A program made the position numbers and the translations under genes. Below are positions 1-6,838 of a DNA stretch of 7,579 nucleotides, piece after piece. Position 1 is the stretch's first letter, and each line of letters begins with the position of its first letter. Source of the DNA: Escherichia coli (GTDB lineage Bacteria > Pseudomonadota > Gammaproteobacteria > Enterobacterales > Enterobacteriaceae); assembly GCF_003334305.1 (NCBI RefSeq), contig NZ_QOWS01000045.1; one strand, written 5' to 3'. The notes beneath the pieces are model-generated. The model saw only the letters and a program-made list of their open reading frames with translations, did no database searches and was not told where the DNA came from.

Positions 1-361
<361 letters not shown>

Positions 362-482
362 GTAGCCTCCGGAATGAAAAAAATTCGATACAGCAACTTC
401 GCTGCAATGTATTCATTGCGGTAATACAGGTCTGTTTTTTTTTGCATTCGAATTCCGGGGAGGAATGTGATTTTGTGGAGCA

Positions 483-504
483 AACCGGGGGCATTGCCCC
501 GGTT
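483..504 (-). other. GC-rich hairpin (8-bp perfect stem AACCGGGG / CCCCGGTT, 6-nt loop) between alpA and the GTPase fragment
   Basis: Perfect inverted repeat read directly from the sequence, 22 nt downstream of the alpA stop. There is no adjacent U-tract on either strand, so it is not a canonical intrinsic terminator; it may be an attenuator, processing or stability element. Confidence 0.3.
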
Positions 505-526
505 CACTGATACGGTGAAATGATAT

Positions 527-766
527 CTAACGTCGCATTACCCATTCATTCAGTTCTGACTCCAGCCAGCCAACGGATTGCCTTCCCAAGCGTTTTTGTT
601 TTGGAAATGTTCCATCGTAGCGTGGCGATTTTGGATTAAGCCAGTCGTATATGGTTGAGCGTGAAATTCCCATTTTTTTCATGACATCTTTTAGCCTCAA
701 GATCCTCGGTGAATCAGGAATATTTGCGTAACTGGATGTATGTAAGGAGGGAGGGTTCTGTAACAT
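527..766 (-). CDS. alpA: AlpA-family (phage/island) helix-turn-helix transcriptional regulator / excisionase-like protein
   Basis: The translation contains RILRLKDVMKKMGISRSTIYDWLNPKSPRYDGTFPKQKRLGRQSVGWLESELNEWV, which closely matches the AlpA (Phage_AlpA) core as I recall it (RILRL...TIYDWL...FP...GWxExExxEW). There is an AAGGAA Shine-Dalgarno about 6 nt upstream of ATG 764..766. It has about 12 extra N-terminal residues compared with my recollection of E. coli AlpA, so the exact start is uncertain. Confidence 0.8.
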   Translation of the reverse strand: MLQNPPSLHTSSYANIPDSPRILRLKDVMKKMGISRSTIYDWLNPKSPRYDGTFPKQKRLGRQSVGWLESELNEWVMRR

Positions 767-1761: not shown

Positions 1762-1992
1762 TATTATTATGGTTTTGATATTTTTATGTCTATCAGGAGG
1801 GCTACTATACGATCAGTCTTGATGGGTTTGAAATTACATCGCTATGAAAATACCCCACATAAATCTATTGGAAAACCAATCATTGTTAATATGACTATTG
1901 TTATGATGACTGTTGTAATTGTGTCTACACGAGAAATTGAATGAAATTTATAGGTTTGAAGTAGCCTTAGTGGTAGTCGAAAATAATTATGT

Positions 1993-2025
1993 AAATGGGC
2001 CTGCATTTTGCAAGAAGGCCCATTT
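1993..2025 (-). terminator. Candidate intrinsic terminator hairpin (AAATGGGCC - 15-nt loop - GGCCCATTT) closing the minus-strand cassette
   Basis: A 9-bp perfect inverted repeat starts 4 nt after the stop of the 2029..2343 ORF. On the minus-strand transcript it is followed by ACAUAAUUAUUUU (a moderately U-rich tract). It sits between convergent genes. Confidence 0.35.
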
Positions 2026-2028
2026 ACG

Positions 2029-2343
2029 TCAGGGGTAAATTATATATCCCATAATCGCACAGATTAACCGGTAATCACTCACGTAGAAGATTTCCGGATT
2101 CTCAGTGCTTTGTTCACCGATAAAGAAGACTTGAGCTCTCTCTTTAGCTTTTTTATTTACTGCTTCTTTTGCTTCTTCCTGCACAGTTTCAAGCTCATTC
2201 AAAAGCATAGTCTTTTTTGGCTTTTGACCAGTCTCCCCACTCAATGTGTAGTTTATAGCTACGCGAGGGCTTAAACTTACCAGATTCGTCTTTTGCCCAT
2301 TCTCCCGAGAGCGGAATGACAATTCGGTTTTCGTCTTGCTCAA
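2029..2343 (-). CDS. hypothetical small protein; either an independent or translationally coupled ORF (alternative ATG at 2206..2208 gives 59 aa) or the frameshifted C-terminal part of the 2195..2941 gene
   Basis: The ORF overlaps the preceding 248-aa ORF by 149 nt in a different frame. The annotated start is a TTG with no clear RBS. An internal ATG at 2206..2208 overlaps the upstream stop (ATGCTTTTGAATGA), a typical coupling arrangement. The ORF ends 4 nt before the terminator hairpin. Confidence 0.3.
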   Translation of the reverse strand: MSKTKTELSFRSRENGQKTNLVSLSPRVAINYTLSGETGQKPKKTMLLNELETVQEEAKEAVNKKAKERAQVFFIGEQSTENPEIFYVSDYRLICAIMGYIIYP

Positions 2344-2941
2344 ATTTCTGCCATAACAACTGCGAATAAAAAACTCGGCGCTCAGGGTAGGGTTGAACCG
2401 GGTCTTTTAGTTTTTTAAACACGGTCATGTAAGTATCGGCATTAATACCTGGGATATTTAATGACATACCACGGTCATACGGGAAGCGAATAAATGCCCT
2501 ACAAATCTGGCGAATAGCATTAACCGGGCGGCGGGATTGCCGCGCTGGAGCATTTCCCCCGCTGGATGCTGACGATGTAGAACGTATTGGATTGGTGTTG
2601 TTGTCGCTACCAGTAGTGCCAGGATCAACAACGGGTCGTTGTTCAATCAATTTTAACCCTGCGGGCATCAAACCCGGTGCGCTGTCTAGCATGTTGCGGA
2701 CGCTTTTTTTCTGTCCCTGCTTAACCACTGTGCTTTCAGCATCTGCATCACAGTTAATATGCTCTTTTCCAGGCATTTTATTAAACGACGGTCTTTTCTT
2801 ACTTCCTTTTTGCCAAGCGGAAGGATACATCTCAATCCCACATCCCCAGCATACGTAACCGTTCGTATCTACAACATCAAGTAACCAAAGATCTTCTGCC
2901 TCAATAATCTCACTGGTATATTTATTACGTGCAGATTCCAT
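2195..2941 (-). CDS. hypothetical protein with N-terminal Cys/His cluster (CWGC...HINC, zinc-ribbon-like), a low-complexity S/T/G/N-rich linker and a C-terminal domain; probable accessory gene of the upstream NTPase
   Basis: Very strong RBS (AAGGAGA 5 nt upstream of ATG 2939..2941). It starts 45 nt after the stop of the 1283-aa gene on the same strand, consistent with an operon. The CxxC...HxxC spacing was read from the translation; no family is recognised. Confidence 0.65.
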   Translation of the reverse strand: MESARNKYTSEIIEAEDLWLLDVVDTNGYVCWGCGIEMYPSAWQKGSKKRPSFNKMPGKEHINCDADAESTVVKQGQKKSVRNMLDSAPGLMPAGLKLIEQRPVVDPGTTGSDNNTNPIRSTSSASSGGNAPARQSRRPVNAIRQICRAFIRFPYDRGMSLNIPGINADTYMTVFKKLKDPVQPYPERRVFYSQLLWQKFEQDENRIVIPLSGEWAKDESGKFKPSRSYKLHIEWGDWSKAKKDYAFE

Positions 2942-2986
2942 GATTTCTCCTTTAAACAGAATTCCTGTGAAGACGGCAACTAGCCT

Positions 2987-5900
2987 TTATTCAAACCGTT
3001 GTTCCAATGCCTCATCTTCCAATCGCTCACGTTCTTTTTCCTTTTCAACCCAGTCAGTCAGTTTTTCATAAACAGCTCTAGCCGACTTAGAAATGTCTGC
3101 ACGCTCGTGGGTGACCAACTGGCCTATCGCTTCAACCCTAGGTTGCATCACGTTCGCACGACTACCGAACCATGATGAAGGTGCTACGTGTTCGGCAAAG
3201 ATCTCAAGGACGGCTCGTGGCTCGGGTGAGGCTTCTAGAAATCTCAGAGCATCATCCTGCAAGCAAATAGGACTTTGCTCCCCGTCTTTTGACCATAGAT
3301 TAATACCTGAAGCGACTGAAGCCCAAACCTGAGGGTCTTTAGTGGTCCTGCACCATTCAATCAAAATATCTACATCGATTTTCGCAATAGGAGACTGATG
3401 TGAATCATCATGATTGATGAAATGCAGCCGCCTCTGTTGTTGATCCTCCGTACCATCAAAAATGCGACTGAGAAATTCTTTTGGCATCCATGCAGCGGTG
3501 ATACCGATAGCGTCTTCGAAAGAATAAATGTAGCCAAAATGCTCATCAACAACAGCGAAGATTGTATTCAGCCATTCTAGCTTTTCAGCCTCGTTGCCAT
3601 CGAAGCGCAATGTGGCATCGATAACACGTTCCATTGCATAATCCAGATATCCGCCGAGATCGTTGTGATCTCTTTGGAACCTCTGGATTGCAGCGGATAT
3701 TCCGATTGTTCGTAGCGCAAGACCTAGTGTATCCGTAGCATCTCCTTTATCAGCTAGTTTCATACTCAGTGCTTCCAATACTACTTCATCACCATTCGGT
3801 TTACTCAGCAGCCTTTGAGCTAGCTCGAGGACCCTGCTTTCTGGCAAATTAGAGAATTGCTCACCCCACAGAATTGCCCCATACATATGGGGCTGTATGT
3901 CAGAGTCATCCAGAAGCGACATGCAACGATCCAGATCGATTTCAGTAAACTCCTGCCAAGGATGAAGGTTGACTAATTCGAATCGAAGTTCGGAATGTTG
4001 TGCACACTGATCGAGCAGTTCCTGCGCTAATGCTGAATCGATAGAATGAGTCTCTTCAATGAAACCTCGAATGACCGAAACATCACGTTGAGATTTGTGT
4101 TGTAGATCCAATTGAATGACTAGTTGTTGCCAATAAATTCGTAGGTCAGGAGCCCCGTTAGCTAAGCCTTTACCAAATTCGACGCGATACGGCATTCCAT
4201 CCCGCAAAAAAAGATTAGGGCACAACTCATCAAGTCCATGGGAAGATACTGCAAATTCGTGCCCCAACTTGAAAGCTTTGGCACAAAGTATTTTCCTGAT
4301 TTCACTGAATTTATTAGTTCCTTGGTGCTCATAATCAGCATCTAGAGCCCAAAAATCGCGCCTATTACTGAGTACATAAGCCATGATTGCCGAAACCAAG
4401 TCTTTAGGTTCTAATTCTCGTTCCAATGTCACAAGTATTTCCGGCAATGGTTCTACGTCTTCGTTATCTTTTCTTTTTGTATGGAAAAAGTAGATTGTTG
4501 AGCGGACAGCTTTCCAGCCTTCACCCCAAGGGCGATGGGCATGTAACTTACGAGCCGCATCAATTAATTTTGACCTTATTCCTCCATGACGCCAAATCCA
4601 GCGAAATTTATCAGCCAAGATCCGCCTGGCATCATCTTCAAGCTCGGGCACTCCTGAGGTTCCTAATCTCACCAAAATATCGATGAAGGCGAATAGCCAC
4701 GCAACAAGTTCATCGTAACTGGGTCGAAATCCATAATCTCTTGGCCTAGCACCAAACTCATTAATTCCGAATCCTGTCCACGGAGGTCCGCCGAGAGCAG
4801 TTTCAAGCATTTCGATCCCCATCCTTCTACGTTCGGCCATACTTGAATCAATGCATTCATTCATGATCGCAACACGTTGTTCTAAAGAGGCATGGGTACC
4901 GGATAGATAAGGTTGGAAAAACCTCTTTATCTTATTTCGAGCCGAATCATAATTATTGCTCGCGCTTTCCTGGTCTGCGATACGGATTAAGAGCTTAATG
5001 CATCGTTCAAAGTATTTCGATTCATATGCAAGTAACTGCAACAATTTGATAATTGCTGTTCGTTGTGGGTTGTAGCGTGATTTAAAATGCTCAAAATTAG
5101 ACGTAACAAGCGTTTCTTCAATCCTCTCAAGCAAAGCTCCTGGGGCAACTGGAGCGATATAATTTAGAATGCGTGTCGATACATCATCTAGGTCTATTAT
5201 TTTTCCAAGCAGCCCTTCGGGCTGTAACCAAGCTTCAACAATCTCTTTAGCCACAGCATGGCTATGCAATAGTCCCAACCTGTGCGCGAACGACATCAAT
5301 AATCGTTGCCGATCCGGAGCTTCAAAGGTCGTTCTAAGTTGATCAATCGGAATACTATTAAGTGCAGATGCTGCCAACTTGTTAGCAATGGCATGGGGAA
5401 GGATGGCTCTCCAGTGGGATCTTTTCTGAACAATGTGACGTTCCATCAACTTCGTAACAGCTTTGAATAACTGGATTTTGGGATACCCAGAGAGCACACC
5501 CAATATTTCCAGTTCATCGGTAGCTGCATCTGGACTAGATATCGAGAACGAATACACCAGTGACAATATTTCAGCTTGCTCCCGTAAATGGCCGTCGGGA
5601 TGATTACGTTGTTCAAACAAGCGATTAAACAACTGCGCATCTGAAAGTAGGGCTAAACTCTCACCTTCTTCCACTCTTTCCGCTATAGCCAAAGCCACTC
5701 TTGCATTCCCATCTGCGAACTCTGCAATCCGACGGGCATTATTCTGACCAATAGAAGGGAAGCGACGGATAAGAAGTTGCTCTGCCACGTCTGGACCATC
5801 TGTCTCAATGTGGATGACCTCAGTTGTCTGTGGTTTGTCATCCCTAATGTCGTACTCGATCGTGATGAGACTTACTTCTTTCCCTGCGGCTGATACTTTG

Positions 5901-6838
5901 CTGGCAAGCGAAGCATGGAGTTCTGATGGGCAATTATCAAGGATCATAATTGCTCGCCGGCCTTCAGCGAGCAGGTTATCAAGCATTGCTGTAGCCGACG
6001 GTACTGGCTCATAGCCAGTATCAACATAAATAGCTACTGTTCGGTCAAGCGCATCTGTTCCAACAGTTTCATCAAAGAGCGCCTGAACGATTCGAGTCTT
6101 CCCAACACCAGACAATCCTGTAATACGAACAGCCTTGTTTGTCGAACGGATCAGTGCTCGCATTGGGTTAATTGCTTCATCAATTTTGAGTTTTTGCCCC
6201 TTTCCCGATGGTAAAGTAATGGTTACGCCTGGGGCTGAGATTAAAGTGTCTATAACACCTTGTGGTGGATTGCTCCAGGCTCCGTAGGGTTGCCAACCGG
6301 AATACCCTTGCCCAAGCTTTGCTTTTACCCACAGCATGACTGATGGATGTTGGCGCAACCATTGGATGAGTTTGGAGCGGTCGTAGAAATCAAGATGAAG
6401 ATAACTTTCGTTAGGATCATCTTTTACTGCATCCCTCATCGCTTTGAGACGATCCTTCTTTCCTGACGGCGAGCAATCATCACCCAGGCTGACAATGATG
6501 TAACTGCCTTGCTTTCTGGCTTGTTCAGAAATGATGGGAGAAAGTGCTTTGCCGGTGCCAATTTCCCTCTCAATTGCAGACTTAGGCATCTTATGTTTCT
6601 TTGCCTGAAAGACCGTATCAGGTCTTACAAGAAAGCCTGCTTTCAGTTGATCAATTGGAACCTGAACATGGATGTCAATTCCTCCGTCAGGGGCTGTAAT
6701 TGAACCAGACCAATTTACACATGCTGGGCTATGGCCGTGCATTGCCACTTCAGCTTCTGCTAGCCGAGCGATCAGCTCTTCCAGCTGGATATCGGAGAGC
6801 CGAAGTAATTCGTCCTTTTCAATGTCAAAGATTGCCAC
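2987..6838 (-). CDS. Large multidomain defence-type protein: N-terminal Mrr-like PD-(D/E)xK nuclease domain + STAND/AAA+-type P-loop NTPase + long C-terminal helical (probable sensor) region; Avs-like antiviral STAND candidate
   Basis: A 1283-aa ORF with no internal stop. The Mrr-like signature is DGGID (aa 51-55, nt 6674..6688) plus QAK (aa 78-80, nt 6599..6607). Walker A GLSGVGKT is at aa 241-248 (nt 6095..6118), Walker B IMILDN around aa 297-302 (nt 5933..5950) and a GNAR lid/sensor-like motif at aa 377-380 (nt 5699..5710). The remaining roughly 850 aa are predominantly helical-looking sequence. The start is a GTG with an in-frame TAG 12 nt upstream and a weak SD, so the start codon is uncertain. 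Confidence 0.85.
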   Translation of the reverse strand: MAIFDIEKDELLRLSDIQLEELIARLAEAEVAMHGHSPACVNWSGSITAPDGGIDIHVQVPIDQLKAGFLVRPDTVFQAKKHKMPKSAIEREIGTGKALSPIISEQARKQGSYIIVSLGDDCSPSGKKDRLKAMRDAVKDDPNESYLHLDFYDRSKLIQWLRQHPSVMLWVKAKLGQGYSGWQPYGAWSNPPQGVIDTLISAPGVTITLPSGKGQKLKIDEAINPMRALIRSTNKAVRITGLSGVGKTRIVQALFDETVGTDALDRTVAIYVDTGYEPVPSATAMLDNLLAEGRRAIMILDNCPSELHASLASKVSAAGKEVSLITIEYDIRDDKPQTTEVIHIETDGPDVAEQLLIRRFPSIGQNNARRIAEFADGNARVALAIAERVEEGESLALLSDAQLFNRLFEQRNHPDGHLREQAEILSLVYSFSISSPDAATDELEILGVLSGYPKIQLFKAVTKLMERHIVQKRSHWRAILPHAIANKLAASALNSIPIDQLRTTFEAPDRQRLLMSFAHRLGLLHSHAVAKEIVEAWLQPEGLLGKIIDLDDVSTRILNYIAPVAPGALLERIEETLVTSNFEHFKSRYNPQRTAIIKLLQLLAYESKYFERCIKLLIRIADQESASNNYDSARNKIKRFFQPYLSGTHASLEQRVAIMNECIDSSMAERRRMGIEMLETALGGPPWTGFGINEFGARPRDYGFRPSYDELVAWLFAFIDILVRLGTSGVPELEDDARRILADKFRWIWRHGGIRSKLIDAARKLHAHRPWGEGWKAVRSTIYFFHTKRKDNEDVEPLPEILVTLERELEPKDLVSAIMAYVLSNRRDFWALDADYEHQGTNKFSEIRKILCAKAFKLGHEFAVSSHGLDELCPNLFLRDGMPYRVEFGKGLANGAPDLRIYWQQLVIQLDLQHKSQRDVSVIRGFIEETHSIDSALAQELLDQCAQHSELRFELVNLHPWQEFTEIDLDRCMSLLDDSDIQPHMYGAILWGEQFSNLPESRVLELAQRLLSKPNGDEVVLEALSMKLADKGDATDTLGLALRTIGISAAIQRFQRDHNDLGGYLDYAMERVIDATLRFDGNEAEKLEWLNTIFAVVDEHFGYIYSFEDAIGITAAWMPKEFLSRIFDGTEDQQQRRLHFINHDDSHQSPIAKIDVDILIEWCRTTKDPQVWASVASGINLWSKDGEQSPICLQDDALRFLEASPEPRAVLEIFAEHVAPSSWFGSRANVMQPRVEAIGQLVTHERADISKSARAVYEKLTDWVEKEKERERLEDEALEQRFE

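Follow-up and report, generated by a model that had tools for sequence, protein, structure and literature searches.

A GC-rich RNA stem-loop just past an AlpA-family gene in an ssrA-linked island of Escherichia coli

The GC-rich hairpin at positions 483-504 of the window, by which we mean the whole 7,579-nt stretch of Escherichia coli DNA analysed here, is an RNA stem-loop lying just past an AlpA-family gene, and as such it is an ordinary feature. It forms as a structure of the sense strand, it is conserved across genera, and it lies between alpA and a promoter homologue that precedes a GTPase operon. The reading that we favour, at a probability of about 0.5, is that of a leaky intrinsic terminator or a protective stem-loop at the 3' end of the alpA transcript.

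Sequence, fold and genomic setting

The AlpA-family helix-turn-helix gene (527-766, minus strand) has 79 codons and a stop codon at 529-527, matches Phage_AlpA (PF05930, E=3.4e-21), and is named in RefSeq a helix-turn-helix or AlpA family transcriptional regulator. An intergenic region of 165 nt separates it from the 5' fragment of a YfjP/YeeP/YkfA-type GTPase gene (62-361, minus strand; about 96-99 codons, with P-loop GTPase matches). Within this region, the hairpin core reads on the plus strand as AACCGGGG (483-490), the loop GCATTG (491-496) and CCCCGGTT (497-504), which corresponds on the sense RNA (483-504, minus strand) to an 8-bp stem, AACCGGGG / CCCCGGUU, with the 6-nt loop CAAUGC. The original prediction of an 8-bp stem made entirely of Watson-Crick pairs was correct in both coordinates and pairing, and so was its distance of 22 nt from the alpA stop, the gap being 526-505 on the minus strand. 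On the other side of the hairpin lies a C-rich, G-poor linker, CUCCACAAAAUCACAUUCCUCCCCGGAAUUCG (448-478, minus strand), that is common to several genera.

In the minus-strand RNA, four more pairs, G505-U482, U506-G481, G507-C480 and A508-U479 (two G-U, one G-C and one A-U), lengthen the stem to 12 bp (479-508). This extension exists on the alpA-sense RNA only, the same four positions being mismatches on the plus strand. The sense segment of 40 nt folds with -19.7 kcal/mol (z = -3.2), a value equalled by none of 200 dinucleotide shuffles, and the antisense segment with -16.9 kcal/mol (z = -2.6). In the inverted-repeat listing of the window, the core arms are 100% complementary over 8 nt and 6 nt apart. 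Since the window has ten perfect inverted repeats of at least 8 nt within 40 nt, an 8-bp inverted repeat is unremarkable by itself, and we judged the hairpin to be real because of its G+C content, its intergenic position and its conservation. The pattern GGGG-N6-CCCC has a single site in the 7.6-kb window, the hairpin core, with 0.06 expected.

Over 330-800, the window matches the ssrA (tmRNA)-linked island found in E. coli O104:H4 and in many other strains with 100% identity, and this island sequence is present in 158 of 5426 complete genomes. In O104:H4 the island occupies the CP4-57 position, where the sense strand carries, in this order, ssrA, integrase, two large hypothetical genes and smaller genes, followed by the alpA-like gene, the truncated GTPase gene, an IS3-family transposase and ypjA fragments. 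The cargo between integrase and alpA is the PD-Lambda-4 anti-phage system (window 2195-6838, minus strand), with PD-Lambda-4_A at 2987-6838 (a 1283-aa ORF with a full-length PADLOC match of 2531.7 bits) and PD-Lambda-4_B at 2195-2941 (a 248-aa ORF, PADLOC E=2e-164). Relatives carry different cargo at the same place, for instance an Eco57I-type methylase in strain A3.

A second structure was observed at window 1991-2027, between convergent genes and directly past the stop codon of a small minus-strand gene, the last of the PD-Lambda-4 cluster. It is a perfect 12-bp inverted repeat (GTAAATGGGCCT / AGGCCCATTTAC) with a 13-nt loop, followed on the minus strand by AUAAUUAUUUU, and is probably the terminator of the PD-Lambda-4 operon. 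Distant AlpA-family genes (loci L020-L023 and L026-L027) are also followed by long palindromes, unrelated to the hairpin, such as GCTATTTTTGCTA..TAGCAAAAATAGC and a 13-bp stem, GTATCAGTTGTGA..TCACAACTGATAC, and then by a DUF3987/YfjI-like gene. Genes of the alpA type may quite generally have a structured element at their 3' side. The distant homologues as a set (L014-L035) were discarded as evidence on the hairpin itself, as other genes follow them, some with unrelated hairpins or palindromes.

Conservation of the stem as RNA

Homologues were searched for with baits that excluded the hairpin, either the AlpA protein or a 26-nt pattern downstream of it. Scanning a genome collection with the AlpA protein gave 25 loci and revealed the alpA-hairpin-GTPase arrangement in Chimaeribacter, Intestinirhabdus and Photorhabdus as well. 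With the 26-nt pattern, metagenomes yielded 11 loci, five of which were new variants. Viral contigs, searched for further variants, gave an identical copy only. The alignment comprises 12 distinct, closely related sequences from E. coli variants, the three genera mentioned and gut metagenomes.

Conservation across related islands had been set beforehand as a check on the element, and the stem is indeed kept in all 12 distinct homologues, with energies between -13.1 and -21.6 kcal/mol. Standard pairs occupy 94.2% of the 138 pair cells, compared to 30-61% for slid partners. Substitutions in the central G-C run of the stem are all compatible with the structure, and mismatches at the stem base are confined to few copies (C-A in ES5, A-G in A3). 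Two pairs change on both sides, a number equalled by 22 of 500 column shuffles: G-C in the window becomes A-U in Intestinirhabdus (5' arm AACCGGAGG, loop CAATG, 3' arm CCTCCGGTT), and A-U becomes U-A in the metagenomic sequence mgL036 (5' arm ATCCGGGGG, loop CAATA, 3' arm CCCCCGGAT). With 12 related sequences, the covariation support in this alignment appears real yet modest.

Four further cells hold G-U pairs that arose from C-to-U changes within the 3' arm, two of them in Photorhabdus (5' arm AACCGGGGGC, loop GAT, 3' arm GCTTCCGGTT) and one each in the metagenomic sequences mgL037 and mgL042. The sense hairpin is more stable than the antisense one in 9 of the 12 sequences. The loop, by contrast with the stem, varies among homologues both in sequence and in length (3-6 nt), the outer AACC and GGTT are spaced by 14, 15 or 16 nt, and the stem begins 18-28 nt after the stop codon, past a spacer of variable sequence (505-526, minus strand, in the window). 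Because loop and arm spacing vary in this way, an RNA stem is favoured over a rigid protein operator. A 46-codon ORF (354-494, minus strand) that would start at the ATG in the hairpin loop was also considered and rejected, as this ATG is lost in Chimaeribacter (CAATTC) and in mgL036 (CAATAC).

These data bear directly on an alternative in which the inverted repeat acts as DNA, as an operator for a dimeric helix-turn-helix protein, the binder being AlpA itself or a WYL/HTH regulator encoded past the GTPase. The centre of the palindrome would then lie about 78 bp before the putative start site of the GTPase operon, ahead of a weak promoter possibly in need of activation, and in E. coli PICIs proteins of the AlpA family act as DNA-binding activators (PMC6092414). 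In the window the 8-bp palindrome is perfect, and the double changes of Intestinirhabdus and mgL036 keep its DNA symmetry. The variable half-site spacing (14-16 nt) and loop do not provide the symmetric half-sites at fixed spacing that such a dimer calls for, and in Photorhabdus, mgL037 and mgL042 the arms are asymmetric as DNA and pair only through G-U on the sense RNA, the strand to which the stem extension is also limited. Moreover, the palindrome resembles a simple G/C run and is missing from the paralogous GTPase promoters. We consider an operator improbable, and the earlier suggestion of a protein-binding palindrome was not supported by this comparison.

Termination, stabilisation and the GTPase operon

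Regarding the class of element, the hairpin shares much with the Rho-independent terminators of E. coli: a stable sense-RNA stem, 8-12 bp long and rich in G+C, a short loop, a co-oriented position 18-28 nt past a stop codon, and a G/C core flanked by A residues 5' and by U residues 3'. It differs from them in its 3' tail, where a run of about 5 or more U in 8 nt directly after the stem is absent. The number of U there is 2 in Intestinirhabdus, 3 in most copies and 4 in Photorhabdus, interrupted by G and C. The earlier remark that there is no U-tract was essentially right, since two of the U in the sense tail UUUGCUCC already lie within the stem. With 2-4 U after the stem and no call from a consensus terminator scan, a canonical intrinsic terminator was rejected; a d'Aubenton-Carafa-type score, with values that are only indicative, ranged from -20 to +7.5, near or below threshold.

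Compared with the stem-loops that stabilise mRNAs at their 3' ends, the hairpin likewise ends a short regulator gene and keeps its structure but not its loop sequence; in contrast to the REP/BIME family, it is single-copy and island-specific, and its stabilising role is putative. A dispersed repeat of the REP/BIME type was in fact discarded, as the hairpin occurs in 157 of 5426 genomes, at a median of one place per genome and always in the same island. It is absent from plasmid and phage collections, and Rfam 15 gave no match in the alpA-GTPase intergenic region at E<=1.

Downstream of the hairpin, an anchored alignment of 16 GTPase upstream regions revealed a promoter-like element (421-447, minus strand) with a -35-like hexamer ATGCAA (447-442), a 15-nt spacer (441-427) and a -10-like hexamer TATTAC (426-421), the -35-like hexamer being about 35 nt from the end of the hairpin. 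Genomic SELEX with the RpoD holoenzyme reported TTGAAA-15-TATCAT for both yfjPQ and ykfA of K-12 (Shimada et al. 2014, PMC3946193). The block in the window aligns with these promoters at every position, shares their 15-nt spacer and falls into the same distance class to the GTPase start. Its hexamers are weaker than theirs, and it is a candidate promoter that neighbours the hairpin but does not belong to it; the consensus scan did not call ATGCAA-15-TATTAC. The -10-like hexamer is TATCAT in K-12 yfjP and TATTAT in the Ag43/Cah-linked copies, while homologues of the window type have TATTAC, TACTAC or TAATAC, all with C at the last position.

The homopolymer noted earlier at 435-443 was confirmed as T9 on the plus strand and A9 on the sense strand (443-435), where it falls within the -35/spacer part of the promoter-like element. 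The accompanying claim that it is indel-prone was contradicted by the alignment, in which all 12 distinct homologues agree in the length of the run (A9, or A8 plus T). Paralogous GTPase genes mostly lack an upstream alpA, and for some the neighbour is a divergent gene at a distance of only 113 nt; because of this, they must have their own promoter. From the sequence comparison, the GTPase operon of the window probably has an independent, weak promoter too, and the suggestion that the hairpin separates alpA and GTPase expression is fair as regards its position between alpA and an apparently separately promoted operon.

Following the preferred reading, translation of alpA would stop at 529-527, and RNA polymerase would then make the 12-bp G+C-rich stem (508-479) with about three U after it. 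This stem would most likely be a weak, leaky intrinsic terminator, and would also block 3'-exonucleases on transcripts ended or trimmed at the hairpin. The alpA unit would thus be closed about 35 nt upstream of the separate promoter-like element (447-421) for the YfjP-type GTPase operon, and the hairpin would limit alpA read-through into the GTPase promoter and its structured leader. Both the effect of the hairpin on RNA, be it termination or stabilisation, and the activity of the promoter homologue in the family of the window are inferences. The reading as a leaky terminator is suggested by the site of the hairpin, where a gene-end terminator or insulator is expected; against it stands the U-tract, a weak and unconserved terminator feature. 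As the promoter homologue is poor, the GTPase operon may instead depend on read-through from alpA, in which case the hairpin would be an attenuator and not an insulator.

The same observations can be arranged into an alternative without termination, where one transcript covers alpA and the GTPase operon and the stem-loop determines processing or stability. The stem-loop would serve as a landmark for RNase III or RNase E, or as a barrier to 3'-exonucleases after cleavage, leading to unequal half-lives of the alpA and GTPase parts. The poor, unconserved U-tract, the weakness of the downstream promoter homologue in the window's family and the retention of the hairpin as a sense-strand RNA structure are all in agreement with it. 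Paralogous GTPase operons, however, clearly do without an upstream alpA and use a homologous promoter block, and cleavage-site features are not recognisable in the sequence. In predicted folds, moreover, the ribosome-binding site of the GTPase gene is sequestered within read-through RNA, a point against productive co-expression. Overall, we regard processing of a common transcript as unlikely.

The leader involved in these folds deserves description in its own right. YfjP/YeeP/YkfA-type GTPase genes are found in 4790 of 5426 E. coli genomes, and their leader architecture recurs in at least five sequence families (window 359-447, minus strand; loci L005-L010 and L049-L053). Every family has a hairpin between the promoter and the Shine-Dalgarno sequence. 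For K-12 yfjP and the Ag43/Cah-linked copies this hairpin is a strong intrinsic terminator; the family of the window has a weaker one with U7. In the window (377-406, minus strand) this leader hairpin is UGCAGCGAAGUUGCUGUA (406-389), followed by UCGAA and U7 (383-377); the corresponding T run at 377-383, before the Shine-Dalgarno sequence, has 6 or 7 T among homologues. Rfam searches of six paralogous loci gave no match to the leader, only IS102/isrC downstream of the GTPase gene, and the available portion of a Term-seq study's supplements showed no entry for the K-12 GTPase paralogues.

RNA from the promoter region is complementary to the region of the Shine-Dalgarno sequence and AUG, with duplex z values of -1.5 to -5.2 in nine representatives; for seven of the nine, at most 5 of 300 shuffles were as good. 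In the window, predicted folds pair the GTPase Shine-Dalgarno GGAGG (370-366) and the ATG (361-359; together 359-370, minus strand) with a CAGACCUGUAUUACCGCAAUGAA segment (433-411). According to these models the full fold-back would exist only in read-through transcripts, and it recalls the fold-back inhibition described for IS10. The GTPase leader may therefore be an undescribed attenuation and fold-back leader. A different anti-Shine-Dalgarno pairing, between CCUCCCCGGAAU (about 461-449) and AUUCCGGAGG, was rejected because of a U-C mismatch in 7 of the 12 sequences. It has one compensatory case, in Chimaeribacter (CCGCAAU/AUUGCGG), and once the coding start is included both RNAalifold and RNAfold favour a CAGACCUGUA...CAAUGAA helix over it.

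A tentative and rather doubtful extension would join the two structures into two layers that keep outside transcription from expressing the GTPase operon, the hairpin being the first and the undescribed cis-regulatory leader the second. The second layer would consist of the weak promoter, the leader terminator hairpin and the fold-back of promoter RNA onto the Shine-Dalgarno sequence and start codon. Translation would then be reserved for transcripts from the proper promoter, or for those that an island regulator, for instance the AlpA-family protein, has modified.

A regulator of the same name in Pseudomonas aeruginosa, AlpA, works by antitermination through an ABE in the promoter plus a downstream terminator (PMC7969949). 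The likeness consists of the regulator name and of a leader hairpin that lies between a promoter and the first operon gene; the hairpin of the window, by contrast, lies upstream of the promoter and not downstream. A search for the ABE motif (GGGACGN5GGTA between -35 and -10) found none near the locus, only ABE-like matches with 2 mismatches elsewhere, at chance level. When the AlpA-family protein of the window was searched against PDB sequences, the only hit was 8c3t, an 'AlpA family phage regulatory protein', at E=0.25. Antitermination of the P. aeruginosa AlpA type was rejected, the proteins having no detectable relation and the ABE motif being absent. The common name appears to be a coincidence.

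A module joint and insertion target

Inside E. coli nearly all copies of the hairpin are identical, the three divergent strains being R32_14_1F, ES5 and A3. ES5 and A3 have ~100% identity to the window from the 3' arm of the hairpin through the whole GTPase fragment; their alpA genes match it in about 18-29 of 30 positions per block (~60-95%), and further upstream the sequences cannot be aligned. Each of the two divergent alpA alleles, between which 10-40% of the positions differ per 30-nt block, has a 5' arm complementary to the one common 3' arm. Because the identity pattern breaks at the hairpin, we place there the joint of exchange between an int-cargo-alpA module and a GTPase-operon module, with a mosaic boundary at about 503-532 of the window (relative to loci L002 and L003). 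The near-perfect intergenic conservation within E. coli was not accepted as a sign of selection, as the GTPase coding sequence is equally invariant, which points to a shared recombinant module.

The hairpin has also been hit by an insertion sequence. In E. coli JE86-ST02, the IS4-family element IS421 (IS186-like) lies inside the hairpin with a 12-bp target duplication, GGGCAATGCCCC (locus L047, 2501-2530 and 3840-3880, corresponding to window 487-500). IS186 has the target consensus GGGG(N6/N7)CCCC (PMC6925257), to which the hairpin core GGGG-CAATGC-CCCC is an exact fit, and the observed insertion has a duplication of the 10-13-bp class. This likeness is a vulnerability of the hairpin sequence and not a function. 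The hairpin 37-mer occurs at two places in 3 of 157 records; the one that was checked is the IS421 split of JE86-ST02, and the double places in all three may reflect such IS splits.

The downstream gene is damaged as well. It is intact (294 aa) in relatives, and in the identical locus of O104:H4 the GTPase gene is annotated as truncated, beside an IS3-family transposase; from that RefSeq annotation, the first ~70 bases of the window (1-73) appear to be part of an IS3-family element. With the GTPase gene cut, the operon downstream of the hairpin is dead in the genome type of the window.

This truncation, together with the mosaic boundary, the IS421 insertion with its duplication and the weak shuffle statistics of the covariation, is what one would cite for a hairpin of no selected function: a chance G/C palindrome carried with the island and notable only as a recombination joint and IS186/IS421 target. 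Such a palindrome would not readily account for a stem kept in four genera and with two divergent alpA alleles, nor for two compensatory changes and a central G-C run that changes only in structure-compatible ways. We hold the absence of function to be quite unlikely.

The boundary at the hairpin also raised the question of an attachment site, in which the hairpin plus GCUCCACAAAAU would be a decayed ssrA 3' end (T-arm, acceptor strand and CCA), the relic att site of an int-cargo-alpA element. On visual inspection, GCTCCAC-AAAAT is similar to GCTCCACCAAAAT at the 3' end of ssrA, and the match lies 3' of a G/C hairpin, in direct orientation, at the mosaic boundary. Its local alignment score of 19, however, is equalled by 121 of 2000 shuffles and exceeded at an unrelated place of the window. 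The hairpin shares no word of 10 nt or more with the ssrA 3' end; across the 24-kb locus, the sole such word is an unrelated 11-mer, and ARAGORN has no matches in the window. The similarity is thus at chance level, and we rejected this highly improbable origin.

Taken globally, the hairpin marks the joint at which int-cargo-alpA modules are swapped against a constant GTPase-operon module, and its GGGG-N6-CCCC core is a natural landing site for IS186/IS421, which can uncouple these modules from each other. For experiments, the GTPase leader would be the more rewarding target. The hairpin itself carries little weight, and mainly helps to draw the borders of transcription units in ssrA-integrated, CP4-57-like islands with anti-phage cargo.
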